Positions 1-24,526 of a DNA stretch of 24,526 bases are shown piece after piece. This stretch comes from Rhizaria sp. SCN 62-66 (taxonomy: Eukaryota): positions 310,001-334,526 of the forward strand of contig MEDY01000004.1 in the NCBI GenBank assembly GCA_001724265.1, read 5' to 3'. A program made the position numbers and the translations under genes. The notes under the pieces are model-generated. The model made no database searches and was not told where the DNA came from. It was given only the letters and a program-made list of their open reading frames with translations. Positions within the stretch are counted from its first letter, which is position 1. Every line of letters starts with the position of its first letter.

Positions 1-1353
1 CCCGCCCCGGCCCCTGCCAACGCCCCCGCGACCGCCAGTGCTGGCGCGAGTGCGGCGCGGCCGCAGGTGCAGTATCCCCACGCAGCCACGCTCTACATCG
101 CGCGTCAAGATCCTGCGTATCCTTCCTCTTCCTCATCATCCTCGTCGTCGTCGTCTTCATCGTCTTCTGCGGCCACCGGCGCTGTTAACGCGGGTTCCGG
201 TGTGACCGCCGCCGGCGCCGGCGCCGCCGTTGTCGCCCCGTGGCTGTACCTGGCTGTGCGCGCGCACGGCCCCGCGCCCGCCGCGGCGCGCCTCACCGCG
301 CGCGGGCTCGCCGCGGGCTCCGCTGACCACAACAGCGCGCTCGAGGCAGTTAAACTCTCGCGCGGGCTCGCCCACAGCGACGGTGCCAGCAGCCCCGTCG
401 CCGTCGCGGCGCCCGCCCCGGGGCCCGGTGACTGCGCCAACTGCGGTGCCGCTGTGCCTGCGGCCGCGATGACGATGCACCGGCTGCAGTGCGCGCGGCT
501 CAACTTCCGCTGCCCCGACCCACGGTGCGGCGTGGTGCTCGAGGCCCGGCTCAAGGCCGACCACGGCCACTGCCCGCACTGCGCGCTGCCCGTCCCGCCG
601 CGCCTGCTGCAGAAGCACGTCGCGCTGCTGCACGAGCCCGCGCGCTGCGGCGCGTGCGACGCGGCCGTGGCGCCGCCGCGCGCGCTCGCGGAACACCTGC
701 GGCACGCGTGCCCGCTGCGACTGCGCGCGTGCGGGTCGTGCGGCGCCGACTTCCCCAGCCGGGACCTCGCGGCGCACGAGCAGGCGTGCAGCGCCAAGAC
801 GCGCCCATGCCGTGTGTGCGGCGCGCGAGTAACGGGGTTGGCGATGCCTACACACCTCGCGCTCGAGCACGGCGTGCTGGCCGACGGCAGCGCGGACCTG
901 CACGGCGCGCCGGCCGCGGGCGCCAACGGCAGCGCTGGCGTCGGCGCTGGTGCGGGCGAGAGCGGGATCGACGACCTGCTAAGCGACCCGAGGTACGTGG
1001 AGTTCCTCTCGAGCTCGGTGCAGAGCCCCACTGCTCAGAGCTCCACTGCAGCAAACGGCAGTGCGAACGGCGCTCCGAGCTCCAGTTCTATCTCGAGTGC
1101 TAAGTTGGCGGCCGGCATCAGCGGTGTCTCTTTGGCGTCCCCTACGCCCGCCGCCGCTGCCGCTGCTGCTGCGGCTGCTGCAGTCGTGACGAGTCCCTTC
1201 GCGGCCGCGGGCGGCGACGACGACAGCTGGGGCGACGGCGCCGCGGCCGCCGCGGAGGGCGTGTGCACGTACTGCGGACTCGCGGGGCTCGGCTACGATG
1301 CGCTCGTGGACCACATGGAGGTCTGCGCCGCCGCTGGGGACGACGGGTTTTGA
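1..1353 (+). CDS. 3' part of a multi-zinc-finger protein (TRAF-type/XAF1/TRAFD1-like fingers; resembles the C-terminal half of UFD1-domain + Zn-finger proteins); 5'-truncated by the window edge
   Basis: Frame 1 is open from base 1 to TGA at 1351-1353; the ORF-track start at 67 is only a GTG. It has tandem Cys/His motifs: CANC..MH..QCAR.N..C...CG, HCPHC..KH...H, CGAC..H...ACP.R...CGSC..HE..C...T..C..CG..H...EH, and a final CTYC..H...C. Poly-Ser and poly-Ala low-complexity linkers are present. Confidence 0.75.
   Translation, partial: PAPAPANAPATASAGASAARPQVQYPHAATLYIARQDPAYPSSSSSSSSSSSSSSSAATGAVNAGSGVTAAGAGAAVVAPWLYLAVRAHGPAPAAARLTARGLAAGSADHNSALEAVKLSRGLAHSDGASSPVAVAAPAPGPGDCANCGAAVPAAAMTMHRLQCARLNFRCPDPRCGVVLEARLKADHGHCPHCALPVPPRLLQKHVALLHEPARCGACDAAVAPPRALAEHLRHACPLRLRACGSCGADFPSRDLAAHEQACSAKTRPCRVCGARVTGLAMPTHLALEHGVLADGSADLHGAPAAGANGSAGVGAGAGESGIDDLLSDPRYVEFLSSSVQSPTAQSSTAANGSANGAPSSSSISSAKLAAGISGVSLASPTPAAAAAAAAAAAVVTSPFAAAGGDDDSWGDGAAAAAEGVCTYCGLAGLGYDALVDHMEVCAAAGDDGF
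124..168 (+). repeat. Poly-serine tract (15 TCN codons) inside the Zn-finger gene
   Basis: tcc tct tcc tca tca tcc tcg tcg tcg tcg tct tca tcg tct tct, in frame. Confidence 0.9.
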
Positions 1354-4861: not shown

Positions 4862-5323
4862 AAAACGAAAGCTTGTCGCTTGTTCTCCGTGAGGGACTGC
4901 GTCGCTAAACGTTCGAAACACCGAAAGTGACATATCGATGGATATGCTGGCTATACGGTGGGCCATGTGACGAAATGCGATGGTTTTGTATTTATAAAAA
5001 TTATTTAAAATGTGATCCAATACAAATTTGCAATTATAATCACGTCAGACTGTGGGAGCGCTTGAAATTGGTCTCTCTTCAAGTCGGGAAATGATTGGCT
5101 GACGCGGTGGGTCTGGCCCGTCGAACAAAGTTAGGCCGCCATCTCGCCGCCTCAAGCGAAACAAAGATCAGAAAAGTGCGCTTGTAGCCCTGGACATGGC
5201 AATGTAGAGACTTTAATATTTAATTATGGGAAAATCGCATTGCGAAGCATGCTCGGGATAATCCGCTGCATTGCTGTCGGTTATATTCCCTGACCTAGAA
5301 GCACCTTTTGTGCTGTGCTCACC

Positions 5324-5482
5324 GTGAGCTCTCACGTCCTCTGGACTTTCACTCCGGGCGCGGTTTCTGACATCTGCCAAACTATTCGTTCATTCTAGCA
5401 AATCTCCCACTATTTTACGGCCACTAATCTCACATCTCTTATCACTCCGGGCTGTATCCACGCGTTTCTTCCTTTGCTGTAG
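5324..5482 (+). other. Putative 5'-UTR spliceosomal intron of the DLD gene (159 nt)
   Basis: Donor GTGAGC at 5324, CTAAT at 5424, pyrimidine tract tttcttcctttgctgtAG ending at 5482, 9 nt before the ATG. Its size resembles the SEC22 introns. There is no reading-frame constraint to confirm it. Confidence 0.5.
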
Positions 5483-5491
5483 AGTCTCACA

Positions 5492-6967
5492 ATGTTCGCC
5501 AAGAACGTGTCCACTCGCATCTCCCCCGTCTCGCGCTTCGCCCGCAAGTTCTCCGCCGGCGCGGCCAAGAAGTACGACGTCGTCGTCATCGGCGGTGGCC
5601 CCGGTGGCTACGTCGCCGCCATCAAGGGCGCGCAGCTCGGCCTCAAGGTCGCGTGCGTCGAGATGGACGCCGTCGGCGGCACCTGCCTGAACCGCGGCTG
5701 CATCCCCTCCAAGGCTCTGCTCAACGCCACTCACCACTACATCGATGCCAAGACCCACTACAAGGATTTCGGCATCATGGGCGGCGAGAACCTCACCATG
5801 GACTACACCAAGCTGCACGCGCAGAAGGCCACCACGGTCACGGGCCTCGTCAAGGGCATCGAGGGCCTGTTCAAGAAGAACAAGGTCGACCACGTCAAGG
5901 GCCTCGGCAAGCTCTCCGGCAAGAACGCCGTCTCCGTCACCCGCGCCGACGGCACCACCGAGGTGCTCAACACCGAGAACATCCTCATCGCCACCGGCTC
6001 CGTGCCCTTCGTGCCCCCGCAGATCCAGGTCGACGAGAAGATCGTCGTCACCTCGACCGGCGCGCTCCAGCTCGAGAAGATCCCGCAGACCATGATCGTC
6101 GTTGGCGGCGGCGTCATCGGCCTCGAGCTCGGCTCCGTGTACCAGCGCCTCGGCACCCAGGTCACCGTCGTCGATCACAACGACCGCTGCACGCCCTCGC
6201 TCGACTCTGACATCGGCAAGGCCTTCCAGAAGTCGCTCGAGAAGCAGAGTTTCAAGTTCGAGTTCGGCCAGAAGGTCGACAAGGTTGTCAACAACGGCAA
6301 TGGCGCGTCCGTGACCATCACCGCCCACAAGGACGGCACCACCAAGACCCTCAACGCCGACGTCGTGCTCGTGTCTACAGGCCGCCGCCCGTACTCTGAC
6401 GGCCTCGGCCTCGACGTGCTCGGCATCCAGGCCGACGAGCGCGCGCGCATCAAGATCGACTCGCACTTCCGCACTAACGTGCCCAACGTGTATGCCATCG
6501 GCGACGTTGTTGCGGGCCCCATGCTCGCGCACAAGGCCGAGGAGGAGGGCATCGCGGCCGTCGAGATCATGGCCGGCAAGCACGGCCACGTCAACTACGA
6601 CGCCATCCCCGGCGTCATCTACACCCACCCCGAGGTCGCCTCTGTGGGCAAGACCGAGGAGGAGCTTAAGGCCGCGGGCGTCGACTTTAAGGCCGGCAAG
6701 TTCCCCTTCATGGCCAACTCGCGCGCGCGCGCCAACCAGGACGCCGACGGCCTCGTCAAGATCCTTGTCGATGCTAAGACGGACCGCGTGCTGGGCGCGC
6801 ACATCATCGGCCCCAACGCCGGCGAGCTCATCGCGGAGCTGGTGCTGGCTATGGAGTACGGCGCCTCGTCCGAGGACGTCGCGCGCACGTGCCATGCCCA
6901 CCCCACGCTCTCCGAGGCCGTCAAGGAGGCCTGCCTCGCCGCCCACGGCAAGCCCATCCACTTCTAA
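5492..6967 (+). CDS. DLD: Dihydrolipoamide dehydrogenase (E3 / glycine cleavage L protein), mitochondrial precursor
   Basis: 491-aa ORF from ATG to TAA. FAD motif DVVVIGGGPGGYVAAIK, redox disulfide GGTCLNRGCIPSK, NAD motif GGGVIGLELG, IGDVVAGPMLAHKA, catalytic HPTLSE. The N-terminus MFAKNVSTRISPVSRFARKFS is a basic presequence. Codons end overwhelmingly in C or G. Confidence 0.97.
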   Translation: MFAKNVSTRISPVSRFARKFSAGAAKKYDVVVIGGGPGGYVAAIKGAQLGLKVACVEMDAVGGTCLNRGCIPSKALLNATHHYIDAKTHYKDFGIMGGENLTMDYTKLHAQKATTVTGLVKGIEGLFKKNKVDHVKGLGKLSGKNAVSVTRADGTTEVLNTENILIATGSVPFVPPQIQVDEKIVVTSTGALQLEKIPQTMIVVGGGVIGLELGSVYQRLGTQVTVVDHNDRCTPSLDSDIGKAFQKSLEKQSFKFEFGQKVDKVVNNGNGASVTITAHKDGTTKTLNADVVLVSTGRRPYSDGLGLDVLGIQADERARIKIDSHFRTNVPNVYAIGDVVAGPMLAHKAEEEGIAAVEIMAGKHGHVNYDAIPGVIYTHPEVASVGKTEEELKAAGVDFKAGKFPFMANSRARANQDADGLVKILVDAKTDRVLGAHIIGPNAGELIAELVLAMEYGASSEDVARTCHAHPTLSEAVKEACLAAHGKPIHF

Positions 6968-7348
6968 GTCCAATGCGCGAGGCTGCAGACTGGCTGGAGT
7001 GTGGTAAGAGTGAGCGAATGAGCGCGTATGTTATAGAGAAAGATAAACAAGTGTGAAACTGTGAGTTGGGCGAGCGAGCTCCGGCTCTCGTGTGCGGGCA
7101 GTGTTCTGCAGCAGCAACAACGAGAGGAAGTGAGTGAGCTTGGAAGTGTGGGAAGGCGTGGATTGATGATGATATTCCGGCAACGCAGCGGCGACGATTA
7201 AAAAAACAACGATGGCACTGCACTGCGCAAGCATGAATGCAATGGTGTCTTTGACTCATGTTGTCGTGTGAGTTGACCTCCTTTGTCTGTGTGTCCCCAC
7301 TATTTATTTCATTAGATCATCAATACACATCATGATCATTATTGCTTT

Positions 7349-7370
7349 AAAAAAAAAAAAAAAAAAAAAA
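7349..7370 (+). repeat. A22 homopolymer between DLD and SEC22
   Basis: 22 consecutive A. Confidence 0.9.
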
Positions 7371-7781
7371 TAACACCCTCTTCAATCAACGATGTTTGTA
7401 CTAACGATATTGCTCATGAAATTGCGTTTGTGGTAGTTGGCTGCGTGACGACGCTCCGCCCAATCGCCGGCGAGTGTGTGGCTGCTGACTCGGCCGACTT
7501 TTCGGATGGTTGATCTAGACATCTTGGTCGTAAAACTTGAATGTGGCTTGACTTTATATTAGACCCGTTTGTTTTAATTTTAATTCTCTTTTTACACGCC
7601 TTCTTGAAATTGTTGAAGCAGTCTAAATTGTCGCTCCCTCTCGCTGACATTCTTCTCGACTCTCTCCCTCGCCACAGAGCCTTCTTCGCAGTCCTTTCCA
7701 GCTGACCTAAACGCACTTCCCTACCAGTCGTGTGTTTTATCTTTCTTGCGTAAGCCGTTTAACTACCCCGAGCCCCGTCAG

Positions 7782-8697
7782 ATGGCCAGTCGCAACCTGA
7801 CGACATTCATCGCCCGCGCGAGCGACGCGCTCATGGTTGTTGCCACCATGGACAACAACTTTGAGTCCGAAGGTTCGTTCTCACACCTCACCACAACTGG
7901 ACCCAAACGAACTTTACTTTCTGATAGAGTATTTCACTGGATGATCTTCTAAATTATCCTCTTACATTCACCTAACACTCTGTTTCTGCTCTCCTATTTC
8001 ACCCGCAGACATCAAGTCCCACGCCAAGAAGATCATCAAGTCGCTCTCGCCCGACTCCCCCGCCAAGTGCATCATGGAGGGCGGCGACGTGCTTTACGCC
8101 TACCTGCTCGACCAGGGCGTGATGTACTTGACCGTGACAGACCGTTCGTTCCCGCGCTTCGTGATCTTTGAGTACTTGCGTGAGCTCGCATCGGCCTTCT
8201 CGCTCGAGTTCGGCACGTCGGTCCCGCTCTTCAACCGCCCGTTCGCAGCCGTGTCGTTCGACACCACGCTCGAACAGATTCGCCGTCGCTTTATGGACCC
8301 GCAGTCGCAGGGTGGGCACGGCATGCAACGTCTCAACAACAACCTGGCCGAGATTCATGACATTATGAGCCGCAACATCAATGACATCGTCAACCGTGGC
8401 GACAGGCTCTCAGGTACGCCGCCAAACAATGAGCTCTCCAAGTTTCATGTAGTGATAAAACAGCATATTATGTCTTTTGCAAGACACTGGGATCTTACTT
8501 TCTTTGTGCCTTGTTTTCCTCTGTTTTGTTTTGTTTCCTTAGACATCGAGAACCGGTCGAACCAGATCCTGGCCGACTCGCGCGCCATCAAGAAGCACGC
8601 TAAGTACGCCAACTTCCTCTCCATGATCAAGGCTTGGGGGCCCGCCATTGCGGCCGTGGTTGTCATCATGTTTGTGCTCTATTTCCGGTTTAAGTAA
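7782..8697 (+). CDS. SEC22: SEC22 longin R-SNARE; exons 7782..7872, 8009..8413, 8543..8697 (216 aa)
   Basis: The spliced product starts MASRNLTTFIARASDALMVVATMD. The longin domain includes YLLDQGVMYLTVTDRSFPR..FEYLREL...F and RPFAAVSFDT. The SNARE motif LNNNLAEIHDIMSRNINDIVNRGDRLSDIENRS has the zero-layer Arg, and the C-terminal TM is AIAAVVVIMFVLYF. Joining the exons at GT-AG sites preserves the frame (651 nt including TAA). Confidence 0.93.
7873..8008 (+). other. SEC22 intron 1 (136 nt, phase 1)
   Basis: GTTCGT donor, CTAAC branch point at 7972, pyrimidine tract and CAG acceptor. It is needed to join the two coding frames. Confidence 0.92.
8414..8542 (+). other. SEC22 intron 2 (129 nt, phase 1, in-frame and stop-free)
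   Basis: GTACGC donor, T-rich tract and TAG acceptor. Removing it restores a contiguous SNARE helix (RGDRLS-DIENRS). Confidence 0.9.
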
Positions 8698-9165
8698 GCG
8701 AACGTTCTCGTTCTTGTGCGCGGAAAGAGGAAGATGATAACAATGTGTAACTTGAAGTAGCGTTGCGCTGGCTTTGTGGGAGACCGTGTTGTGCCGTATA
8801 ATTGACTCTGTTAGGTATTATATTTTGTATCGGATTGAATTGTTTGTATATGAACTTTTAAATACACCTCATTTGCTTAATGAAAGTAGCTCCGTGGCGA
8901 TGTCCTTCCATTTGTGCGTTTTGACGGATCGCATAGAGTCACCAGCGAGGCAAGGATCTTTTGATTATGATAGCCGTTGGCTCTCAAACTTTCATCTCGG
9001 ACATCTCCGTGGTTGTATCGTCATTTGTGCTGCGAGTTTCTGAACATGTGCCTAAATGTTATTTTCTCTTCAGTTTTTAAACCACATTTTGAAACACACT
9101 TTGTACCTCCCTCCATTGACACACCAGTTTTACCTTAGTCACATCACAAAGCTCGTCTCATCGAG

Positions 9166-12100
9166 ATGGAAGCGGACGCGTTTCTACGCGCCGGGCCCTC
9201 CTCCCCCGAGCTGTCGCCGATTATGGGGCCGCAACAACCACCGCGCTCCGTGATGGCGCCCTATGTTGACGCATCATCCTCGTCTAGCACCCCTGCATCC
9301 CATCCCATGCACGCGGTTGTCTCCCACACCCAAGCAGCTCCCTCTTTTGCCTATTCCGCTCCCGCTGCAGCAGGGGCTCCTGTGAGCCCACAACGCACCT
9401 TCGCCGCCACATGCAAAGATTTAGGTCTCACTGACGACGAGTTTGAAGTCCTGGCGTCGATTTTGACTTCTGCAGAGCGCGAACGCGACCGCACAGTTGC
9501 CCTCCTATCCAGCCATCTCTTGTCCAACAATGCAGACAGTAGCCGGCCCAGTAAGCCCTCATAGCTGCCGCTCACGCTTGCCGGGCTTGCCGCGAGCCAC
9601 GCGCGCGTGGTGACAGCGCCCGACGGTTTATGGGCCGGCAAAGACGCTGCGCGTGAGAGCTTCTATCTCCCCTTGCTATTGCACATGTGTTCAGCCGCTG
9701 ACGCGTTCGCGACGCCGACCCCGGCGCAGCAGCGGCGCCTGCGGCAGCACCAGCACCAGCACGGGCTGCCCGCTGAACCCGGGCTGGCTGCGCACGCGCT
9801 GTGGACGACGCTGGAGCTGGCTTGGACCGCCTGCCACCCCGCGCGGGCGCTCGCGTGCTCGCTGCACGCCTCGCGCATGCTCACGCACACCTTCGCGGGC
9901 TGGCAGGAGGCGTTCGCGGACGTCACGCCGCCGCACGTGCTCGCTGCGCTTAGGGCCGCGCCCGCCGTTGCCGCGCTCGCGCGCACCGCCGGGGCGCTGC
10001 GACAGTGGCAGGGCTGGCTGCAGGCCCGGCGCGCGCGCGCCGCCGCTAAAGCAGCTGCCGTCGCCGACAACGTCGTGGCCGACGCGCTCGCCCACGAGCG
10101 CCGGCTGCGCCGCGTCGTTACCGCGCTGAAGCAGGAGGCCGCGGACGGCGCCGCGAGGGACGCCCGCGCCGCCGCGGCCGCGCGCGTGGGGCTGCTGCGC
10201 CGCGCCGTACGGGGCTGGGCCGAGCGCGCGCGCGACGGATACGAGCGCGCCGCCTGCAAGGACGCCGCCCGGGCATTTGCGCGGCGCAGTGCGCTGGCCC
10301 GGGCCGTGTCGCGCCTTCGCGCAGGCCGTAGCGCCGTCCTGCACGCCGGCACTGCGACTGGCGCAGCTGGTGATCACGGCAAGGACTCCGCGCCGCTCTC
10401 GCAGTCAACTGTAGCCCGTGCGAGACGCCGCGCTTTACCCCGCGCGCGCGCCGCTGCGGCAGCTGAAGCCGCTGGTGTTCTTGCCGATCGACGCCGGGCC
10501 CGCGCAGTAGCGCAGTGGCGTGCTCAGGCGCAGCAGGATGCGGCTGCTCGCACGGTACGCGCGCGCCACACAGCATTAACCGACAAACAGCTCGCTTCGG
10601 ACGCGCTGGCGCGGTGGCGACATAAAGCTGCTGTGGCACGCGCAGCACGGGCGCTGGCGCGGCGTGCGGCGGCAAGGCGCGCGCTGTTGCGGTGGCACGG
10701 TGCTGCGGGCCCCATGTCCCCCGAGAACGTCGCGACAGCAGCGGCGCGTGCAGTCCGCTGCGGCCGCGAGCGCGCGATGGCCGTGTGGCGTCAGGTTGTC
10801 GCGCAGCGCAAGTGCTTTCGTGACGCGACAGCGCGGGCAACGGCTGTTGTTGACGCGGTAAAGGCCAGGACCGCGGTCCGCCGGTGGGCGCGCGTCGCAG
10901 TCGGAAGAGCGCTGCTCAAGGCGCCGCTCGGCGCGTTTTCGCGCCTGTCGCCCGCACACACCGCGCTCGCCACTTTGCCACAGCTGCCAGGCGCAGCAAT
11001 CGCGAACGAGAGCGCGGCATGCGCGTTTGCGGGCCTGCGTGCGGCGCGTGCTCGTGCGAGCGCGAGTGGCGACTCGGCCGCGCGGCGTGCGGTGAAGCAC
11101 TGGCGGGCGCACGTGCGCGAACGGCAGTCTTTGCGGGCCGCCACGGTGGGTTTGCGCTACGTCCATGCGCTGCGTCGGCTGCGGCTTGCGGTCGAACTCA
11201 AGCGCGCGCGCAAAGCCGACGCTGAAAAGCTGCGCCAGCGTACTGCGCATGCCGCGAAGCAGCGTGCGATGGCGAGGCTGCTTGGAAACGCGGTTGCGCG
11301 GGCTGACGCGCGTGCACTCGAAGCTGAGGCCGCTGCTGCTGAGCCCGCGTTGCGGCGGCGCAGTGTCTTGGCGAAATGGCGCACCGCGGCTGCAGAGTTG
11401 CGTGCCCAGGGTCGCGGTGCTGCGCGGATTGCTGCACGCGTTCACTACAACAGCTCTCTTGCACGTGATGCCCTCGACACGTGGCGCAACGGCTACACTG
11501 CGCGCATTGCCCGGCTGCAGCAGTGTGAGGCCGCTGTGGGTGAGGCGCGGCGACGTCGTGTTGTGCGATGGGTGTTGCAGTGGTGGCAGCGCGCACTACG
11601 GGCGAAGCCGCTACTGCAAGCGCTTGCGCGCGCTGCTCCGCGCTGGGCGCTAAAGGTGCGCGCATGGCCCACTTGGGTTGCGGCGACGCAAGAGCGGATG
11701 CGGCTGTTGCAACTGGGCCGCCGCTGGCGCGCGCGACAGGCGCTGCAAAGCTGGCGCCGCCGCGCGGCTGCGGGAGTTGCGAAGGACGCTACACTCACAC
11801 CTGTGGCTGATGCGCATCGCAGCAGGACTCTGATGCACAAAGCGCTGACTGCGATGCGTGTGCGCACAGAGCAGGCCGCACGTGCAGCGGCGCTGGCAGA
11901 CGCGCACTATCGCGGTGGCGCGCGCTTTGGTGACTCATGGCGTGCGCTGTTTGCATGGCTGGCGGCCGTGTGGGCGACCCGTCACCGTCGCCGCACCGCG
12001 CAACGCGCAGCAGTCACTGCGCTTGTGACCTCCGCAGTGGGTGCCCAGCACCGACGCGCGCGCGTAGCCGCTGCAGGGGCGTTCTGGGCTGCCACTGCGC

Positions 12101-15100
12101 AACGCCACGCTGTCCGCGCACTTGCGACGTTTGCAACTGAGCGCGCCGCAGCGCGCAAGGTTGATAACACTGTTGATCAGTGCGTGATCAGGCCCTTTTT
12201 GCTCCGGCGAGCAGTTGCTGCTCTTAAGGACGCTGCTGTCGCGCGCGGATTTGTGCGCGTACGTAACGCTCGTATTGTGTTAGCTGCTCTGGCACTGTGG
12301 CGCGCGCGGACTGCGCTGCGACGCGCTGCGCGGGGTCGGCTGGCGCTGTTGGTGGCTGCGCGCGCGGAGGCGCCCGCTCGAACTGCGCTCGCTGTGTGGC
12401 GTGCGTTCACTGCACGTCGGTGTGCGGAGCGCGCTGCAGAAGACGCGTGGACCGTGCCGGTGCTTGCACTAGATGCCGCGCGCCGTAGCACGCTTCTGCA
12501 CTCTGTGTGGCGTGTGTGGCGCATGCACACTGTTGCTGCTGCGGCATGCAAAGCGCAGGCGCTGGCACGGGGCGTTGCTGGACTTGCTGCGAATGCCCAG
12601 CGCCGCCGTGCGCTGAGGGCTCGCATTGATGGGGCGCACTCTGCGGCTGCAGCCAGGCGGATGAAATTTGCAATCACCACGATTCGTGCGCGCAATATGG
12701 CGAAGAAGCAAGAGTTGAAGCACATCAATAACTGCAAAGACAAGAACAGGTTGCGCCAATGCGCGCGCGCAGTTTCTAAGTGGCGGCAGCGCTTGGTCTC
12801 GCGTGCTGACGCAGTTGATCTTACCGCTGCTGCACTTGCGTTGAACCGTAAGTTGAAGACTCGCCGGGCTGTGCGGGCATTGCGTACTTCTGCGGCGGCT
12901 CGGCTGCTGCGTTGTGCCGACGATGATGCAGTAAACTCAGTCCGCGACCTGTCTCGCGCACGCAGAGCCGTCTCGCAATGGCACGCCTGGGTGGCGACTC
13001 GCGCGCGCACTGCAACCAGCGCTGCTGCCGTCACACGTGTGCGTGTAACCGTTACTGCAGGTGCTGCTGTTGCGCACTGGCGTCGTTGGGTCGCCTCCAA
13101 CACGGCCGCACGCGCTCGCCTGAAACTCGCCTCTGCAGCGCATATGCGTGCGCAGAAACAACTTGTTGTTGAAAAGTGGTGCGGCCTGGCAGTGCGCTGC
13201 GCGGGTGAGGCATCTCTGCAGAAAGAGGCTGTTGCACATGAGAAGCGGCGTGCATTGGCATGGATCCGTGCTCGCGTGGCTTCATACAGCGTCTTTGCAA
13301 GCAAGGCTGACGCTGCGAAGCGTGCGAGCGTTGCTGCAAGGCGTCGTACTGCGGTGCGCAAGATTTCTGAGCACGCGGTCGCGCATTCCGCGCATCGTAC
13401 TGTCAGTCTTGCCGCAAGCATTTGCTTAAGAAATCTGCGCGTGCAGCGTGTGGTGGCTCACTTGCGCGATTTGTCGCACTCTAAGGCGCATTGCGACACT
13501 GCTACAGCTGCCGTTCATCGCGTGTCGCGCGTTCACAGGCTTTGTGCCGCAGTGCGCACGTGGACCCGCTGGCTGCGGCCGCGCCGCACAGCGGCTGCCT
13601 TGGCGGCTGATTCCAACTCAAAGGCTGTGCGTGAGGCCCTGGAGGTCTGGCGCGCACTTGCAACCCGTCAGCGTTGCGCAGCTGCTCTTGCAGCGCTCTT
13701 ACGCCGTCGCTCACTTGAGAGATCTATTGTTGCGCTGCAACGCAACGTTGCCGTTAAGCGCGACACAGCAACATCAATTGATCTTCATAGCCTGACAGTT
13801 TTGTCAGAGGTATTAACCTACTGGCGTGCCTCGGCTGCGCGCCGCCGCAGCGCCAAAACGGCCGCGACGGCACTTCTCGCGCAGACTACGCGGGACACGC
13901 TTGCATCTGCGTTTTCTGAGTGGCGACGTGTACGTGTTCGCGCCCAGGTGCTTCGCGGCGCACTCGCCGTTGGCCGGCGCCTAGCGCTGGGCAACATCAT
14001 GGCCCGGTGGCGCGCATGGACCAGGGCTTTGGCTGACGATGACCATGCAGTTGCGCAGTGGGCCGTAGCGACAGGCGCTGCACTGCCGCTCTCGGTACGC
14101 CTGCGCCGCAGAACTACAATGCGCTTCCATAACAGTGTCAGTAACGATTTTAATTATGAATACGCCAACGATCAAAACACCTCTCCCGCTTTGTCGCCGT
14201 TGCGGCCACTGCGCTCACTCTCGGGTGACTTTAACGACGCTGAGAGAGTGAGAGTTGCTGAGGATGGAAGCCCGCTGCATGTGTTACCGCTGCTGCGGAC
14301 ACCGTCGCCCACGGTGCTGCACACTCAGTACATTCCTTCGTATGGCAATACTCGCATGTCACATCAGCGTCGCTTTTCGTTTGAGCGCGTTATGGCGCGG
14401 CTTCATGAACACCCAGGTGGTCCACCCCCGCGTGCGCTGCTTGCAGCTAACGTGTTGCGCCGCATCTGTCATCCGGAAGCCACGGTTGCGTTTGCTGCAT
14501 GGCGCGAATGGACCCGTGCACAGCGAGGACGCGGAGCCATGATGCATGTCGCCGTGCTCCGTGACCGCACAAACGTGCGTGCTGAGGTGCTCGCGCACTG
14601 GCGATACGCTGCACGTGAGCAGCGCGACAATACGCGCGCTGGTAGTCTGTTTGTCCGCAACGCACAACATCGCGGACTTGCCGCGCTGCGTGACAGGGTG
14701 TTTGCGACAAGTGTAACCGAGCGCGCAGCAAGCTTCAATGGAACGCTTGCCCTGATCCGCGCGACCAACGCTATTGCCACACTGCACAAGCTTGTGGTGC
14801 GGAGAAAGACGCGCGATACAGCGACTGCAGCTGCGCGCGCAAGCGCACTGCGCCGTGGCCTGAACGCGTTGCGTGTGGCCAGACTCGAAAGGCAGCGCCG
14901 TCGTGTTGAGCGTGCTCTGGCAGTGCAGTGTGTCCGCACGCGTGCGTTGCGGCTCTGGTATCAGCATGTTGCGATTGTGCGTGCTGTGCGTGAGCGTCGC
15001 GCTGCCGTTGGTGGCGCGCTGCGTATTACGACCATTCAGAGGTTGCGCTTGTTGGTGCGTGCACGTAAAGACAAATCTGCTGCGCATAAACTTGCTAAGA

Positions 15101-18100
15101 CTGTGGTCCGTGCGCGCGTCATCACGACGCTCATGCGTCATGTGCATGGCCGTCACGAGGCCCGTGCGCGCATTGCCACCGCAGTTGCGCGGTGGCGCCG
15201 TATTTCTGCTAAGCGCGCTGTTAACGCGCTTTGTGAAAACTTGAGTGTGCGCAACGGACGTGAAGCCGCTTGTGCCACTGCGGTGGCTCATACTCGGCGT
15301 AACTGCGAGCGTGATGCTCTGCGCACATGGCTCGCTGCCTTGCGTGATCGCAGCAACGAACGGGCGCTCGATACTGCCGCAGCTGTCCATGCGGCGCGCT
15401 CTGCATGCCGCCGTGTTGTGCAGGCGCTCCAGCTGAACGTTGAGAGGCGGCGTGAGAAGGCGCTTGCCCGCAAAGTTGCTGCCCAGAACGCGTGCGTGCG
15501 GGCTGTAACCGCCCTGGCACGCGCTGCCCGTCGCGGCGCCGGGCTCAGCGCTGCTGCACGCGCGGGCGCGGTGCTGTGGGCACGCTGGGCGCTGCGACGC
15601 GGCATGAGCGCTTTGATGGCAGTGCGTGTGGCTGCGCACACGGAGAGGCTTGTAGTCGCTGCGCGCAGGCACAGTGCGCTGCAGCGTCGCTGGGAAGACA
15701 ACACAGCGAATAGTACGCGTACGGTTCATGCGGTCAGCGGAAATACGCATCACAACACTGCAGATCATACTTTCACGCGCTCTACTCGCTTTGCGCCAGG
15801 TGCTAGTCTCGCCCGCACGCATCATCAAAACAGTGGAAGTTTGACTGACAATCAGGATGATGACTTAGAAGACGCTCTTTTTGGCCTGCCGCCTCTGCCT
15901 CTGCCACGTGTTGATGGAGGACTGCTTGCGGTTTCCGCTGTGCGTGGCACACGCTCGTTGGCTGCCGCGCAGCTCGATCCGCTGATTGCGTCTCTTCGTG
16001 TGCGCGCAGCAGTGAACCGGTGGCGTGCTTTTGTGGCCCGCCGCGCGCCTCGCCGCGCCGCGCGTGTTGCTGCGTCTGCATCTTCCGCAATCGCTACCCT
16101 ACGTGCGCACCGCGCCGTATTGGCTTTGCGTTGCCATGCCCAAACTCTCATTGCGGCCCGTGCCTTCCGCTCGCGCGCTGACGCCCGCACTGGTGTCGCT
16201 GCACTGCAAGAACATGCGTTGGAGCGCCGCCGTGAGCGTGCCGCCGTCACGCTTACACACGCGCGCGGGGCGCTGCGGCTGTGCCGCACTGTGCTGCTGT
16301 TGTGGGCACGCCAAGCTCTGGCATCGCGCGTTCTACGTGTTGCAGCAGGCGCTGTTATTGGCGCACGCGAGGGTGCGCACACCCGGCGCGCCGCTGCACT
16401 CTCTGTGCTGTTGCAACGCGCGGCTGCTGGTCGGCTGCTTTCTCCTGCGGTTGCCGCTGAAGACGCCACTGACGCGCGGCCGCAGCTGCACTTGCCCCCG
16501 CATGGCCGCGCACTTACGCTGACTCAAGAGGCCCGCGCGCGCCGCGCCGCACGCGCAGTTGACTCCGCGCTTGTCGCTGCCGGGTGCGCTGTAAGCAGCC
16601 CAATCACTGAAGACACTCCTGTTCTGACCTGGGAAGACGCCTTTAGTGGAGACGCGGGGGCTACTGGTGCTGACACTGACACGACAGTGTTGTTGCGTAC
16701 CCCCGCACACAGTGCGATTACGGGCGCTGCAGCTGCAGCAGCTGAGGCGCGTGTGCGCTGGCACCTCCGTCGCGACGTGCGTTCCACAGCCATCTCCGCA
16801 TGCGCGCGCATTGGTGCTGCAAATGAGCGCGGTGTGTGGGTCTCTGTGCCCGCGCATGCTACAACCGTATTCCAAACCGCAAGCGATGTTGTTGAAGAGA
16901 ACTCAGACGCAGGAAGTAACTCCGGTGCTGGTGCTGTTGTTGTCTTTGACGCGACCGCATTAGCCCGCATTGCGTGGGACGCCTGGCGCGCTGCGCTCGT
17001 ACGCGCGTGTTTGCTTTCGGGCGAGGCTGATGTGCACCGCCGCAACCGTAGTACGGTGCATGCTGTTGCTGCGCTACGTGCAAACATGGTTGCCACTGCG
17101 CGTGGACCCGGTACAACCACTGCTGCCCGTCGCGTGCGTCGACACAGTTTAGCTACAGGAGCTGCGATGCACAACGCGAAGGCATTTCAGGCACGGGGAC
17201 GCGCGGCCGGGTTTGTTCGCGCACTTCAAATCAACCGCGGCGAGTCCCAGCGCATTAAGGCTTTGTGCCGCGCAGCTGTTGCGTTTGCACGTCAAGCGGC
17301 TGGTCGACGTGTGTTATCAGCGCTTCGAGTAAGTGCTACCGCGAAGCGTCGCGAAGCTGCAACCGTTTCCGCGGTGCAATCGTCGATTGTAGTGGCCTCG
17401 TCCTTGCGTGATGCTTGGTGCAGCTGGCGTGGGGCTCTTGCCGCACGACGCAAGCATGTAGCCGCAGCTGATGCATTTGCTGCGGCAGTAGGCTGTAACA
17501 CTATTCGTGTGTGCTTCAGTCACTGGCGCACTGTGCTCGCAGGGCAACGCGAGTGTGAGGCAAAAGAGCGTGCTGCGGCGGTGCGTGGTGACCGCTTAGT
17601 CTCAGTCGACGCGCTTCGGTCGTGGCGCAACCAGGCCCGTGAGCGCACGCTAGATCGCGCTCAGCGTGCGACAGCGCTTTCACGTGACAGGCTTAGCGCG
17701 CTGCGTCGCGGCGTTCGCGCATTGCGAGGCGCAGTAGTCCGCAGCTGCACCAATAATGAGCGTTCTACCGCGCACTTTACTGCGGTCACCGCGCCCCGCG
17801 CTGCTGCTCGTGCAGTGCAGCGTTGGCGCGTGTTGGCCACAATCGCAGTCCGCGACAGGTTGGCGACGCTTGCAGTGAACGCACAGCAGCGTCGCCGGGC
17901 CACAGCCTCCGCACGCACAGTTTTGTTTGCTTGGTACCGTGCGATGCGTATTCAACGCGCGCTGTGCACTATCAGCAACGCAACAGAGCGAGTTGTGGCT
18001 CGGCGCGCGTTGACGCATTGGCGTTGCTTTACCGAGCGCTCCTGCACTGACTTAGCTGTCAAGCTGCATTAGTCGCACCTTGCACGGCGTGGAATCCGTG

Positions 18101-20910
18101 CGCTTGTGGCTCGACTAGCCCGCGCGCGCGCCGACCGCAATCTACACGCGCGCGCACTCGCCTTTGCTGCTGTGACCGGTCGCCACCTCCAACTTGCGCA
18201 GGCAGTGCGCTGCATTCAATCGAACGCCGCGCGCCGCAAGGTGCATTCTGTAGCCGTGGTCGTTGCGGGGATTCACTATCACACAAAGCTCGCGCGTGAT
18301 GCAGCCGCGGTATGGCTTGCGCGCACGCGGGAGCGTATGCACGCGGCCCACGTTGACGCCGCGCTTAATGCGCATGCAGAACAGCGGATGACGCTGCGAC
18401 GTGCATTTGGCGCGTGGAAGCTCGCACGCGCCGCGCGGGCTCGCGCCCGGGAGACAACTTTGCGGCCCGTGCTCTACCAGTGGGTGCAATTGACTGCGGC
18501 CGCGTGCCATCACCGTGCCCGCGTCCCTGGCGCCGCGCAAACTGCGATGAAAGAAGTTATTGCGGCCGTCAAGCGCTCGCTGCAGGCCAAGGCGTTATGC
18601 GCCGTCGCGCGGAAGCGCATGATAGGACTGCGGCTATTTCAATGGAGGGTCAGCGCTGGGCTGCAGCGCCGCCAGCGCGCGGAGGCTGAGGCGAAGGCGC
18701 TTGTGCTACAAACGCGGCGCGCGTGGGGCGTCTGGCGCGCGGTCTTTGCTCGGGTGCGTGACTTGACGTCCGCGTCTAGCACTATTGCGACAGGCTTCCG
18801 CAGGGCGCGCGCACGGGCGGCGCTGCGTGCGTGGACTGAAATGGCGCAACGCAAGCGTTTATTGTCGCTTCTTGAGCGTGCATTTACCCAGCAGCGGCTT
18901 GCCGCGCGCGCGTTATTTGTATGGCGCGGCGCGACGCTCACCGTGCAGGCCGAAGACGGTGCGCGCGCGGAGGCTGCAATGGCACTACGTGAGAGGCTCG
19001 ATGGTAAGCGGGCCGCGCGGGCCGTGGCTATGCTGCAGCGCAACGCGCGTGAGCGTCATAACGGACGCGCGCGTGAGGCCGCAGCGGATGCGATGCGCGC
19101 TGCAGCATTACGGCATCGGCATCTTTCGCAATGGCGCAAGCGCACGCTGCGTGCGCTGGCGGAGCGCGACGGTGACAGTGATAGCGATTATGGCGCGGCT
19201 GTGAGGACGCATCCTGGTGTCCTGGCGATGCGCACTGCGGCACTGCTGACAGCGGGGCGACCTCGTGCGCGGGCGTTAGCTCGGCTTGAAGCCACAGTGA
19301 CTGAAGACGATAACTCTAGCACTGTGGAGAACTATGAGAACGGCGTTGACTCGAATGAGAGTGTGATGATGGCGCAATCTCGCCTCGGCAACACGAATGG
19401 CTACATCGCACCGGCTCATAGTCAGTACGGTGGTGCGAACAACCGCAGTGTTGCCGGCCGCGGACCTTTGGGTCTCAGCATGCTTCGCTCGCCCTCCCAC
19501 GCCCTCAACAACAGCACGCCTCATAACAATGGAAACTCTAGTGTTGCCAATGGGCGCAGTAATTTCAACCCTGCTCTTAGTGCTCTACCCGACCCCGCCT
19601 TTGCGTCATCTGCCTACAATACGCACAATACCACGAACGCACACGTTAAACCTAGCAGTAACGAAAACGTCCTCAGTTTCAGTCACTCTGCCCACGGCCA
19701 TTTACTGAACGGGTCACAGGGCATCGCCCCGCATTCGGGCGCCCTCGCTCGTGAGCTTGGCGCTGCTCTGCCGGAGCCAGCAGTGCGCCGCGAGTCGCGC
19801 GACCGTTTCCCGCTGTCTTCCGCAAACATCAGCAGCAGCAATGCGATGGCGACGAGCTCAGCTGGGCTGAATGGCGGAGGCGCTAACAGCGAGTTTGGAC
19901 TCGGGCTGGGTTCGCTGCGCAGGCTCGCGTTGGCAGGCGCCCGTGCTGCTACAGAGGCTGCGCCTGCTGCATTCGTTGCGCGCTCGCTTTCTCCCCACAG
20001 CACCAGCAGCCACGGCCGCAGCGGTACGCACAGTGGCCCGGCTGTGGCTGCAGTGCTTTCGAGTCATCCTGTGGCCGGCTCCGCGGCGGCTGCTCTCGCG
20101 GCCGACCGCAACCGTGGCGTAGCGGCGCGTGCAGACGCGATAATTTTGCGCGATTACAACAGCTATGGCGGCAACATCAGCAACGGTGACACAGATAGTG
20201 CCGTTGTGAGCATTATTGCCGCTGCCGACAACAACACTGTGAACGTGAACGCGGGCCCTGTGAGTAGTTCCTATCGTGTGAAGGAACGTGTGCGCGAGAA
20301 TGACCGTGAACGCAAAGATGCGGCGCTGGGCTTTGTGTGGCCGAGTCCTGTCGCCAAGGGCGGCTCTGCAGCAGCGTTAGCTCGGATCACCGCTGGCGAC
20401 GCTGCTGCGGGTGGTAGCGCGATTATGACGACGCCTGTGCGCGCTGTGCGTGGCTCCGTGTTCGCAGGGCATCTACACGGACAAGTGTCACCTGTGTTTG
20501 CGCCCGTTGGTGCTCATGCGCATGCGCATAATGCGCTCGCCTGGGCCGTCCAACGGCAGCGGGGTCATGGCACGAACGCCAGCGTTGACGACGATGTTGA
20601 GGACGCGAACGATCCTATTTACAACGACCACCCCTATCAGGTTGACGGCCACCACGGCCACGAGGTTGGCGACAAACACATCAGCGTTGGCCCGAGCGGG
20701 CATGAGGAGTGTGAGCACGACCGTGACCGTGATCGCGACCGTGAAGGTGAAGGTGAGCAGACGCTGCTGCCGATCGTCGCGGAGACGCACACTCAACGTT
20801 CACACACACAAACGCCACCACGAGGCCCCGGGCGCGCAGGGAACTCGGCCAACGGCGCACCCGTGGACCGCACGTTGATGTTGGAAGATCTGACGATGGG
20901 TCAATTGTAA
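9166..20910 (+). CDS. SFI1: Giant Sfi1-like (centrin-binding repeat) protein, about 3914 aa, read as one frame containing two in-frame TAG codons (9562-9564 and 18070-18072)
   Basis: ORFs 9166..9564, 9607..18072 and 18106..20910 are all in frame 1, and the gaps 9565-9606 and 18073-18105 are open in that frame. The 9607 and 18106 starts are GTG rather than ATG. Dozens of Ala/Arg-rich helical repeats end in Trp, e.g. ARVHYNSSLARDALDTWR, TLASAFSEWRR, TIRVCFSHWRT, TLRRAFGAWKL, matching the Sfi1 pattern A-x7-L-x4-F/W-x2-W-K/R. The C-terminal tail is disordered, and the frame ends at TAA 20908-20910. Confidence 0.75.
20719..20757 (+). repeat. Hexamer-based microsatellite encoding DRDRDRDREGEGE in the Sfi1-like tail
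   Basis: gaccgt gaccgt gatcgc gaccgt gaaggt gaaggt gag. Confidence 0.7.
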
Positions 20911-21291
20911 CTATATGCGCGAGATAGGGCTTATAAGACTTCTTTCGGAGAGCGTGAAATAGCATGAAAAGAAGGGCTTGAGTGTGGTGGCGGAAAAATG
21001 AATCAGAAGCACACTGAAAAGAGATTGCTAGGACCGTTATCTTAGAACTTGAAATTAAACAAAATACATACTGATATAATACATTATCGTGAGAATATCT
21101 TCTTTTAGTGACATTGTGACGCGCAAAGTGAGAGAAATATCAAAATGGTGGCTACTGTCAAAAGTTAAGCCGCGCTGACAGAAGGAGAGGGCCAAGTTGG
21201 CTTCGATTTCAACACGTCTTGCAGAGCCTATTAACCGCCAAAATCGACAAAGAGTCTATAGAAGCTGTTGTTACAATTTAATCTATAAACC

Positions 21292-21447
21292 GTAATTTTT
21301 CGTCGAGTCGATTGGCCTTATATGGGTCGAATCACGGGGTTAAAGTAGCCGGAACCAAGCCTTGTTGTTCGCGCTGGTCTGGCGTTTCTTTTCTTCCTGC
21401 AGCTTATCTAACCTCCATGGATTCGTGGTTGTTTCCCACTTCTGTAG
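21292..21447 (+). other. Putative 5'-UTR intron of the Pro-rich/CYSTM-like gene (156 nt; alternative acceptor at 21402)
   Basis: GTAATT at 21292, CTAAC at 21408 and tttcccacttctgtAG ending at 21447, 15 nt before the ATG. The branch-to-AG spacing resembles SEC22 intron 1. A second strong acceptor, tttcttttcttcctgcAG, ends at 21402. Confidence 0.4.
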
Positions 21448-21462
21448 TGTTTCATTTGCCCG

Positions 21463-22245
21463 ATGAGCGATCACACGCGCTCTCAGGCCGTCAGTAGTCG
21501 TCAAAAGACGGCCAGCAGCCCGCGCAGCCCACAGCAACCCCTCCCTCCACTGCCACCTTCGGAGTCTCCCGCCGTGGTTCCCATCACTGCCCCCACCGCG
21601 AGTTATGCGTCATCTTCCTCTTTGTCGCCTGTCAGGACCACTCCTGTGCCCTATATTGCCCCGTTGACGCTTCCGCCTTCGCCCGCGCAGCTCCCCTACT
21701 CGTACACCGCCCCGAACAACCCTCGCTCTAACGGGCCTGCCGTCTCCTCCTACTCCCCTGCGCCCGCGCCCGCGGCTGCGCCCACGCCTGTCGCTGGCCC
21801 GTCAGGCGTCGTGGGCACGTCCTACATTGAGGCGCCTGTGCGCAACCCCCCGATGGGTGCTGGCTACGGTCACGGTGGCAACGGCTACGGTGGCGGCTCC
21901 AACGACCCATACGCCTTGTCCTACACACAGCCCGCCACGCGCAGCAGCTTCGGCCAGGTCGCCACAGGGCAGCAAATGACGCTGATCCAGGCCCGCTCGC
22001 CGCATACGCCCAGCGGTAACTCCATGGGCAGCGCGAGCGGCTCTGGCAAATACGCGAGTGGGCACTACAACGGCGGCAACGGGGGCGACAAGTACTGTGA
22101 CCCTAAAGACGCGGGCGCGGTCAAGACCAGCAAGGAGAACGAGCAGACCGAGGCTGACCTCAACAGGGGGCTATGCGGTGCGTGTTGCTGCGTCGCGTTT
22201 TGCGCCATTCTTGGTTGCTTCTGCTGCAGCAAGGGTGGCGACTAA
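21463..22245 (+). CDS. Pro/Ser/Tyr/Gly-rich protein with a C-terminal cysteine-rich hydrophobic tail (CYSTM-like, tail-anchored or palmitoylated)
   Basis: 260-aa ORF from ATG to TAA, GC-rich relative to its flanks. A low-complexity P/S/Y/G body is followed by GLCGACCCVAFCAILGCFCCS. Confidence 0.7.
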   Translation: MSDHTRSQAVSSRQKTASSPRSPQQPLPPLPPSESPAVVPITAPTASYASSSSLSPVRTTPVPYIAPLTLPPSPAQLPYSYTAPNNPRSNGPAVSSYSPAPAPAAAPTPVAGPSGVVGTSYIEAPVRNPPMGAGYGHGGNGYGGGSNDPYALSYTQPATRSSFGQVATGQQMTLIQARSPHTPSGNSMGSASGSGKYASGHYNGGNGGDKYCDPKDAGAVKTSKENEQTEADLNRGLCGACCCVAFCAILGCFCCSKGGD

Positions 22246-24526
22246 GCGATGCGAATTACGAGTGGCACTCGTAGCGATTCGAAGCGACGCTTAACGCACT
22301 CAACCTACAAAAACCTCTTGAGTTGCAGGCAATTCGTGCTGCTAAGTCACGGATGCATTATAGCCTTGCTTTGCTTTGTGAGCGCAACCCTGCGTCATGG
22401 AATCGCTTGGTAGAATGTACTTTGTTTATCCGTATCTCTAATTATTGTCTGTATATTGCTGTTCCTCCGATTTTAATTGGTTTTGTTTCCGTTCTTTTTT
22501 CTTTTTCTTGTCAAACAAAGACTCCGGATAGGGCTGGCTTGTACTGGACTTCAGTTGCCGCCCGCGCCCATGCCTTTGCTATCGCGCTCACGACCGATCT
22601 CTCTCGCTCTCTCTTTGTGCTACCCCTTATGTCTTGGTGTGTCAATCTGTCTACCTGCCTTTTTTGACTCGACTATTTGTGCCCTCTTTTCCGCGCGCGC
22701 GTTAGGCAGCACAACGATGTCTGCTAATGTGGCTGAGAAATGCAACGATATCTGAAACATCTGTCAGTTAGGTGTAAGACGCGCGCACTTGATTGTGTAA
22801 CTGTCTTGTGTATTTGCTGAGCATGGTGCCTTTTCTTGTTAAGCTGTCTTGTCGCTGCATTGCTCTACCTGTGAAGATGTCGCTACTTTGTTGATATGTG
22901 TAATTTTTTTTGCATGCTTATGTTGTCTCGTGTGTTACTTATGAACAGCTTCCTTGCATCACAATCGCTCATGTTGCCCTGTTGCTTTATCAAGGGTGAC
23001 AACAGCTAGTGCGCTGAGTTTTTTGCGGTGTCAGTACCATCTAGTTTGGCGTCATGGAAATCGAATAATTTGTTGGGCTAATTTGTTCCCGCTTGGCGGG
23101 AACGACCGTGTGCTCTTTCACTTCGACTTATCTTCGCTATAGATGACCGTGGCAAGCTCTTGATAGCTGGTACGACTTGTATTTATGATCGTGCTGCTGT
23201 CCACTGCAACTGCGAAATGAACCTCCAGTTGCAAGTCGGCACGACAGCTCGCACATGAGTCAGATAGCTCGGCTAGTAACTCTAACGATTATAAGAATGC
23301 ACAGTGCTCTTTGTGTGGTATTGTTGTTGTGCGGTGAATGATGTCGGATAGCAGTGGCACTGAGCCCGAATCCGACAAACAACTCATCGTCGCAGGATCG
23401 CGCGCATGAGCCCCAGTGATATTCGAATGAGACAACAAACATCACCTCAGTTTAACGCGTCCGTAACCACTGCTATCTTCTCTCCCTTCTCTACAGTTGC
23501 ACATATTGTCATGCTCAGAATCACACTTCTTAACCGCGCTGACGATCACGGTCACTGGCAGCAGAAATGCTGTTCTCTGTGTCCCAGTTTTACGACACAA
23601 TCTGGTTTCCCGTGACCTACATCACTATTCATCTATCTTTTCACCATATCTCAATAGGTCGTTATCCTTTTTCAGTTTGTTTTTTTATGTTTTGTTTAAT
23701 TTTGCCCCCATTCTGTACGCTATCAATGTTACTTCAAACATCATTGCACTGTTTCTTAAGTTTCCGTCTTAACAAATTTGGTTTGTTTTGCCACTCTCGA
23801 CAAACAGTGTCTCTTGTATGTTGTATTTGCTGCTGTTTTTGTTCTGCTACTGTTGTTTCTTTTTGTCTTATTGAATCTGTTCCGCTGTGTCAACTCTGTT
23901 GTATATGCTATGTTGTGTGTGACTGCTCTGTTTCTGTGTCTTTATCACCGTCACACAATGCTATCTTTGTTGGTACGTTTGTCTGACACTCACTCCTGCT
24001 CCGCTTGCTTATGTTGTATCGCACTGCATTTTGTCATGCGACAAGAATGTACAATGTGTTAATGCTCGCTGCTCCATCTTTGTGATGTTGTTTCTTCACT
24101 TCAATCGCTGCGCTGACCGTTGTACGTATTTACCTTTACGTGGAACAATGTTACGACCCATCATTCTCGTAACAACGACACTCACGAATCTCCATTAGCT
24201 TGCGCCTAAGTTAAGTTTAGTTGGTTTTACGTATTAAGTTTGAACGATCGAAGATGTCGGGGATTATTCTATTTATACCCCCCTATTTTACTATCTGCTA
24301 TTATTTTTTTATGCACACACCGGTTACACTCTGTTTTAAACATTCGTTCTTTTTGTTTTCTCTTGCCCTGTTGGAGCTTGCCCATAAAATATGTTGCTTA
24401 TTTTACAAACTGTGGCTGAATGTTGTCACGTACCCCCGATGTAGAGGTTTATGAAAAAACGTGTTTTCCGCGATTTTCGCGCCTTGGTGCGCACTTTTCT
24501 ATTTCACTACGAGCGAAATAGTCCAT

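Follow-up and report, generated by a model that had tools for sequence, protein, structure and literature searches.

How does an organism make a protein from a gene whose only reading frame is interrupted by stop codons? This question is raised by a locus of Rhizaria sp. SCN 62-66, where a reading frame of 11.7 kb is broken by nothing other than two TAG triplets. The locus lies in a stretch of 24,526 nt (assembly GCA_001724265.1, contig MEDY01000004.1, positions 310,001-334,526, forward strand), here called the window, and all positions given are those of the window. Frame 1, from the ATG at 9166 to the TAA at 20908-20910, has three stops in 3915 codons: TAG at 9562 (TAG1), TAG at 18070 (TAG2) and the TAA that closes it. 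In the remaining five frames of this stretch there are 90, 169, 63, 71 and 103 stops, so that the openness of the frame is far beyond chance. With TAG read as X, the frame encodes 3914 residues followed by TAA, and X133 and X2969 are the only interruptions. A first-pass annotation of the window had described three consecutive open reading frames (ORFs) in frame 1 parted only by single TAGs, and had proposed that the organism may read UAG as sense. The arrangement is as it was described. As to the proposal, our tentative answer, held at a little short of even confidence, is that UAG is translated organism-wide as a rare and disfavoured codon.

Neither TAG junction contains a frameshift, a TAA or TGA, or an AT-rich spacer, in agreement with the same annotation. 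The G+C content (GC) in the 100 nt 3′ of each TAG is 0.69-0.70, versus 0.44-0.51 after all six true terminators of the window. These terminators were also reported correctly: TGA is used twice, TAA four times and TAG not at all. The base following the stop is a pyrimidine at both TAGs (C and T) and a purine at four of the six true stops. A pyrimidine after the stop is a weaker termination context in eukaryotes.

The 132 codons 5′ of TAG1 contain no stop, compared with 4 and 6 in the other two forward frames, and the same 132-residue ORF is called on two contigs from other assemblies. GC is 0.41 before the ATG at 9166 and 0.68 after it, a rise also seen at the start codons of those other genes that were checked. 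When TAG is read through, the frame is open also in the upstream part (9046-9165), to an ATG at 9046 and via a third in-frame TAG near 9136. This part is taken as leader and not as coding, being AT-rich (GC 0.41) like the spacers.

The giant gene accounts for 64% of the codons of the window (about 6130 in all) and has two TAGs in 3914 codons. The other five genes, with the SNARE gene spliced, have no in-frame TAG in 2218 sense codons. GC at third codon positions (GC3) is 0.62 in the giant gene versus 0.76-0.94 in its neighbours. A/T-rich codons are well represented in it (CAA 43 vs CAG 78, TTA 22 vs TTG 66), and GAA and AAA are freely used.

The TAGs in other runs and the continuity of the gene

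Base-call error was among the explanations offered earlier for the TAGs. The window stretch is present in public bioreactor, wastewater and activated-sludge runs (12 listed, 10 with the whole or a part of it, six studies), and four of the 12 listed runs contain half or more of the window's words. Contigs were compared with the window in four of the 12, and the findings that follow are those among the records listed. Identical contigs are present in run X3, which belongs to another study; record 7 of this run (16513-18121) spans TAG2 without a difference. A variant haplotype, in which both TAGs are kept, is represented by run X4 of a third study. Its record 10 (7806-9675) bridges TAG1 with 10 differences, all at 8100-9005, and its record 15 (16756-19017) bridges TAG2 with 7 differences, all at 16900-17929. 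A sense allele at the TAG sites was found neither in X3 (TAG2) nor in X4 (both TAGs). The middle ORF is called as a gene on contigs of 8988, 17210, 8986 and 206822 nt; all four calls end in ...LAVKLH, and one of them differs by one residue elsewhere. The TAGs are genuine; because contigs of other studies carry both of them, base-call error is very unlikely.

The X4 haplotype was also used to follow the evolution of the locus. In segment 2, 10 synonymous and 18 nonsynonymous differences from the window are listed. The listed ORF records, about 7.2 kb in all, are free of gaps, and two indel events are present in the 470-nt upstream spacer. Over 4482-21326 the divergence is patchy: it is about 0.46% in 11353-17929, amounts to 10 differences in 8100-9005, and is zero in 4482-5901, 17930-19017 and 20469-21326. 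This pattern points to recombination, or to an assembly made from a mixed population.

That the TAGs are spliced out, or that the ORFs belong to separate genes or transcripts, had also been considered. An intron over either TAG is unlikely. GC around them is 0.53-0.77, versus 0.39-0.42 in the proven introns of the window, which are those of the SNARE gene. Intron-like, in-frame GT..AG candidates of at least 40 nt across the TAGs (97 at TAG1, 140 at TAG2) all have a GC of at least 0.55; none resembles the proven introns of 129 and 136 nt. No GT..AG joint inside the giant ORF was present among the listed joints.

Direct evidence for continuity across TAG2 comes from a relative. A HMMER search with 1200 residues centred on TAG2 against 1.84 billion representative proteins gave three proteins, two of which are the window's own pieces. 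The third, P0013, has 1479 aa, is 41% identical and is encoded on a 26,164-nt metagenome contig. It is one ORF through the TAG2 site (...ADALA-D-THCARRGVRAL... in P0013, ...AVKLH-X-SHLARRGIRAL... in the window), and alignment columns 542-1041 (500 columns) are gap-free. Identity is 233/588 (39.6%) before TAG2 and 174/392 (44.4%) after it. The extreme C-terminus, PVDRTLMLEDLT.G, is common to both proteins, with 14 of 18 residues identical as against about 40% overall. Because P0013 is a single ORF through TAG2, the C-terminal motif is common and repeats lie on both sides, segments 2 and 3 are, as judged from these comparisons, one gene. The 3′ third of the giant gene has, on the same grounds, been under long-term constraint at the protein level. 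Splicing-out of the TAGs is unlikely in view of the candidate introns and the gap-free alignment at TAG2, and separate genes or transcripts are unlikely since the relative is continuous across TAG2.

At TAG1 the evidence for continuity is internal: an open, GC-rich frame of 132 codons starts at the GC boundary and is in phase with the rest. No relative covering TAG1 was found. A search for an upstream piece of the gene of P0013 among proteins of 784-2496 or 30-783 residues gave none, a weak negative obtained with a low-complexity query and among the best 8000 candidates. Near-length proteins around TAG2 were limited to the window's own ORF. DNA of the relative was sought in metagenome contigs, where only L001 was obtained, which is window 18190-23261 at 100% identity; genome contigs (protein patterns and a 50-nt exact pattern) and viral contigs gave no match.

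An artefact in the wider sense, in which sequencing or assembly error, short introns or three adjacent genes give the appearance of one coding sequence, is the least probable explanation of all those considered here. An in-frame 15-nt GT..AG sequence (18058-18072) does cover TAG2, and GTAAGC occurs 14 nt upstream of TAG1. Against these stand the independent contigs that carry the TAGs, the GC of the longer candidates, the lack of a listed joint inside the ORF, and an alignment with P0013 that is conserved up to TAG2 on both sides, with no AT-rich spacer.

The column of TAG2 is unconserved (LH-X-SH vs LA-D-TH, one site in one relative). The residue is not inferable from the internal repeats, TAG2 being situated between a strong (2930-2959) and a weak (2978-2999) repeat. 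A 'HY' register of the repeats at TAG2 was tried and failed on counting. The earlier statement that the amino acid cannot be assigned from the window is borne out, the relative having Asp at this unconserved column.

Weighing UAG decoding against its rivals

As error, introns and separate genes are unlikely, UAG must be decoded if the full-length protein is made. To this extent the proposal of a sense UAG stands; two codons in one gene do not establish a sense UAG organism-wide. In the reading that we prefer, 9166-20910 would be one gene encoding a repeat protein of about 3914 residues, in an uncultured, intron-poor protist of wastewater and bioreactors, and both UAGs would have to be translated for the full-length product. 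Throughout the organism UAG would be a poor or unused terminator, with UAA and UGA terminating. A suppressor or near-cognate tRNA would decode it, probably with low efficiency, and the codon would persist only at very low frequency, in a long gene with weak codon bias and weak constraint. Such a state would be a low-usage, possibly early-stage or ambiguous, change of UAG from stop to sense and not an established reassignment. We infer the translation of UAG, its basis in tRNA or eRF1, and its organism-wide effect from the features of this locus: both interruptions are TAG while no terminator is, TAA dominates among the terminators despite a GC3 of up to 0.94, no frameshift, TGA or TAA is present in 11.7 kb, a pyrimidine follows each TAG, and contigs from RNA runs are present on either side of TAG2.

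A number of observations weigh against this reading. In-frame TAG occurs in one of the six genes only. Since A/T-rich codons are tolerated in the giant gene, UAG would be expected much more often if it could be used freely; UAG, if it is sense, must therefore be strongly selected against. Its use is far below that in the published accounts of UAG reassignment compared here, and an established, widely used reassignment is contradicted by the window itself. TAG makes up 51.5% of the one-step nonsense paths in the ORF, the probability that both hits are TAG by chance being about 0.27, and none of six terminators is a small sample. Within the 24.5-kb window no tRNA (CUA included) and no Rfam match were found. 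The ratio of nonsynonymous to synonymous change (dN/dS) between the haplotypes is about 0.68, which is indistinguishable from neutrality (28 listed differences, with 30 further differences left out). The TAGs lie inside blocks that are identical in X4 (9006-9675 and 17930-19017); the two haplotypes may thus be no independent witnesses and may owe the TAGs to shared recent descent. No RNA record bridging 9562 or 18070 is among the listed records of runs X6 and X7, a listing from which 458 records are missing. The window was chosen for its TAG pattern, so that there is some circularity in the arguments from 'both TAG' and 'no other lesion'; this choice does not affect the comparison of strains or the alignment with the orthologue.

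Two fixed nonsense mutations under a standard code are a serious rival to UAG decoding, and one to which we attach a considerable probability, though well below even. The giant gene would then be a very young pseudogene or a truncated gene. No other gene of the window offers so large and so weakly constrained a target, as the share of the codons, the GC3 and the dN/dS of the giant gene indicate, and TAG is the commonest one-step nonsense product here (0.515). No other gene contains TAG, and its frequency is far below that of published reassignments. Yet two such hits have been accompanied by no frameshift or other stop in 11.7 kb, and by no indel in the listed ORF records of the variant haplotype. 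Under a neutral-decay model, with assumed indel-to-substitution ratios of 0.05-0.2, 28 substitutions would create no new stop with a probability of 0.49, and no frameshift would arise with one of 0.01-0.33; the probability that two disabling hits are both nonsense is 0.02-0.16.

In the truncated form, translation would start at the ATG at 9685, following a leader ORF of 132 codons, and would end at TAG2, 945 residues short of the C-terminus. This ATG is 40 codons 3′ of TAG1, and the public gene call P0005 starts there. However, without efficient reinitiation hardly any translation would get past TAG1 at codon 133, and a protein ending at TAG2 would lack repeats and a C-terminal motif that are conserved at 41% overall identity. 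The conservation 3′ of TAG2 would persist if the mutation were recent. As to age, the runs with the TAGs date from 2015-2025 and belong to three studies, one of them possibly the source of the window DNA. The absence of TAG from the six terminators also speaks against a standard code.

Restoration of the frame by A-to-I RNA editing, with UAG changed to UIG and read as UGG (Trp), is improbable. Both interruptions are UAG, the triplet preferred by fungal editing, which favours U at -1 and hairpin loops according to the accounts in PMC11156358 and PMC10776026, and the UAG of TAG2 is placed in a 7-nt hairpin loop of the local minimum-energy fold. However, the folds do not stand out from those of shuffled sequences (z -0.84 and -1.01), and in TAG1 the A is paired. 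The editing is described in these sources from ascomycete sexual stages. The present organism is unlike an ascomycete: it has an HCF101-type gene, and its dihydrolipoyl dehydrogenase (DLD) is nearer to trypanosome and plant chains than to that of yeast. No A>G change at 9563 or 18071 was seen among the listed differences of X6 and X7, the records of which do not cover the sites.

Gene-specific programmed readthrough of two leaky UAGs, the code being otherwise standard, is more improbable still. It would be consistent with the pyrimidine after both TAGs and with the continuation of the frame and of the orthologue beyond them. The readthrough motif UAG-CARYYA is absent, the sequences after the TAGs being CUGCCG and UCGCAC. 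Compared with shuffled sequences, the 120 nt 3′ of each TAG show no excess of structure (z +0.26 and +0.77), and they are less structured than two control stretches of the same gene (z -1.49 and -0.61). Moreover, two successive events of low efficiency would give very little full-length protein. Editing, gene-specific readthrough and artefact together take up a minor share of the probability.

The preferred reading, translation of UAG as a rare codon, has a narrower form, in which the reassignment of UAG is at an early or 'ambiguous intermediate' stage in a GC-rich, non-ciliate protist. UAG would no longer serve as a terminator, that role being left to UAA and UGA. Its inefficient translation would limit it to weakly expressed genes, at about one codon in 2000. 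We consider this form rather unlikely. A low-usage stage of codon reassignment is predicted by theory; no nuclear example of it was met in the papers considered here.

The repeat protein and its neighbours

The giant protein is rich in Ala and Arg and contains 81 Trp residues, typically 26-36 residues apart or separated by multiples of about 33. In 40 windows anchored at W[RKHQ], A is found at -4 in 27, L, V or F at -3 in 30, and R at +1 in 33. A self-built hidden Markov model of the repeat matches from residue 222 to residue 3330, on both sides of TAG2. Pfam gave no family, Sfi1 (PF08457) included, at E ≤10 for four pieces of the protein and for P0013. The repeat profile had no match in PDB, and phmmer against PDB gave weak matches to MIC60 alone (E 0.018). 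A feature-space search with P0013 gave a sub-threshold lead towards Sfi1 (rank 29, score 0.77). Tandem Repeats Finder showed no recent expansion of the repeats at the DNA level, with one row of 46 nt only. The product is thus a repeat protein outside any matched family, with Trp-anchored repeats of about 33 residues.

These repeats are reminiscent of the Sfi1-type centrin-binding repeat, of which there are giant examples in ciliates; membership was supported by none of the tests. The likeness lies in dozens of helical-looking repeats of about 33 residues that end in a hydrophobic residue, two residues and W-R/K. The difference is that the giant protein is without a Pfam match to Sfi1 and its repeat profile without a PDB match.

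Table 1. Features of the window on the forward strand, with the parts of the giant frame listed below it
Feature	Position	Strand	Remarks
Zinc-finger-like ORF, 5′-open	1-1353	+	ends TGA
HCF101-architecture protein, 801 residues: DUF59 (FeS_assembly_P), Mrp/ParA NTPase, DUF971 (GBBH-like_N)	2456-4861	+	ends TGA
Dihydrolipoyl dehydrogenase (DLD)	5492-6967	+	ends TAA
Longin SNARE, three exons	7782-7872, 8009-8413, 8543-8697	+	ends TAA
Giant frame	9166-20910	+	ends TAA
Segment 1: ATG and 131 codons, Ser/Pro/Ala-rich	9166-9561	+	0 stops in 132 codons
TAG1, codon 133	9562-9564	+	context CCC TCA TAG CTG CCG, next base C
Segment 2: 2835 codons, Ala/Arg-rich repeat region	9565-18069	+	
Repeat array, about 33-residue, Trp-anchored	9829-19155	+	crosses TAG2
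TAG2, codon 2969	18070-18072	+	context CTG CAT TAG TCG CAC, next base T; opposite Asp696 of P0013
Segment 3: 945 codons, repeats go on, then low-complexity tail	18073-20907	+	repeat matches at residues 3032-3330
Conserved C-terminal motif PVDRTLMLEDLT.G	20860-20901	+	last alignment block 14/18 identical to P0013
TAA terminator of giant frame	20908-20910	+	GC drops to 0.45, then 0.29 beyond
Pro/Ser/Gly/Tyr-rich protein, 260 residues, Cys-rich hydrophobic tail CGACCCVAFCAILGCFCCSKGG	21463-22245	+	ends TAA

The window is gene-dense, with all six genes on the forward strand (Table 1). Coding blocks have a GC of 0.60-0.76, and the spacers are AT-rich and T-skewed, with a GC of 0.40-0.50. The SNARE gene had been annotated as a single ORF (8074-8697), which reads the second intron in frame, as do the public gene calls P0007 and P0008. 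Spliced contigs of the cDNA run X7 show three exons instead. They skip two GT..AG introns with pyrimidine tracts, at 7873-8008 (136 nt, GC 0.42) and 8414-8542 (129 nt, GC 0.39), and the joined exons encode a clean longin SNARE of 216 residues. Since these introns are seen in X7, the organism splices. A kinetoplastid polycistron, brought to mind by the GC-rich array of genes on one strand, was dropped in view of the two introns and of a DLD only modestly nearer to a trypanosome chain.

DLD has an extreme codon bias (GC3 0.94) and nonetheless a TAA terminator. Its best solved relative is the trypanosome chain 2qae (571 bits), with plant and human chains only slightly behind, and it appears to offer no clear taxonomic signal. 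A mitochondrial HCF101 paralogue is described as a mark of SAR, Haptista and Cryptista (PMC7980591), and the HCF101-type gene of the window is possibly a lead to a lineage within this assemblage. The protein encoded at 21463-22245 has no Pfam match at E ≤0.01. Its Cys-rich tail may resemble CYSTM-type modules. A run of A of about 21 nt is present near 7350-7372, and the 2.3 kb 3′ of 22245 have a GC of 0.40-0.50 and no convincing ORF.

Known codes with a separate UAG

In the accounts of nuclear codes considered here, a change in the meaning of UAG nearly always goes with one of UAA, and codes in which the two are uncoupled are few (PMC5304391; PMC11687900; PMC10553269). Two of these, as described in PMC5304391, are those of the rhizarian exLh, with UAG=Leu, and of Iotanema spirale, with UAG=Gln; UAA and UGA are kept as stops. 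In exLh, 384 in-frame UAGs are reported in 71 genes, mostly at conserved Leu columns, with 56 UAA and 15 UGA as terminators (PMC5304391). The window resembles these descriptions in that UAG alone occurs in frame, the stops are UAA and UGA only (here four TAA and two TGA), and the organism is a non-ciliate protist. A further likeness is the scarcity of the reassigned codon in highly expressed genes. It differs from exLh, as far as that account goes, in having two UAGs in one of six genes and an unconserved TAG2 column.

Phyllopharyngean ciliates are reported to use UAG=Leu or Gln with UAA as the preferred stop, and suppressor tRNAs have been found in them (PMC11687900). The window shares with them, on this description, the uncoupling of UAG from UAA and the preference for UAA, which is used by four of six genes here although the genes are GC-rich. 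In the UAG-reassigned ciliates of the same report, internal UAG is present in 78-91% of genes (PMC11687900). By comparison, UAG is found here in one gene of six, no tRNA lies in the window, and the GC-rich composition and introns of about 130 nt are unlike those of a ciliate.

Ambiguous or context-dependent stop codes have been described in Blastocrithidia, Condylostoma and Amoebophrya ex Karlodinium (PMC5304391; PMC12153298; PMC6394959). As in those descriptions, a standard stop would be translated within genes with termination intact at gene ends. Those codes, as presented there, use two or three stop codons and use them often, whereas here UAG alone is concerned, and very rarely. In filamentous ascomycetes, premature UAGs are restored by A-to-I editing (PMC11156358, PMC10776026). 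The genes with in-frame UAG that these sources describe are, like the giant gene, pseudogene-like and otherwise intact; the lineage is another one, and the hairpins at the TAGs of the window do not differ significantly from shuffled sequence.

If the two TAGs are plain nonsense, the locus would be an ordinary case of a giant, fast-evolving repeat gene that is being lost or shortened. The organism recurs in wastewater and bioreactor data of several studies, and DNA and polyA-RNA reads exist for a genome-wide test. If UAG is indeed translated, the locus would represent a further uncoupling of UAG from UAA in a non-ciliate, GC-rich organism, with an independent origin. If its usage is truly so low, it would represent a transitional state of a code change and would bear on the choice between codon capture and an ambiguous intermediate.

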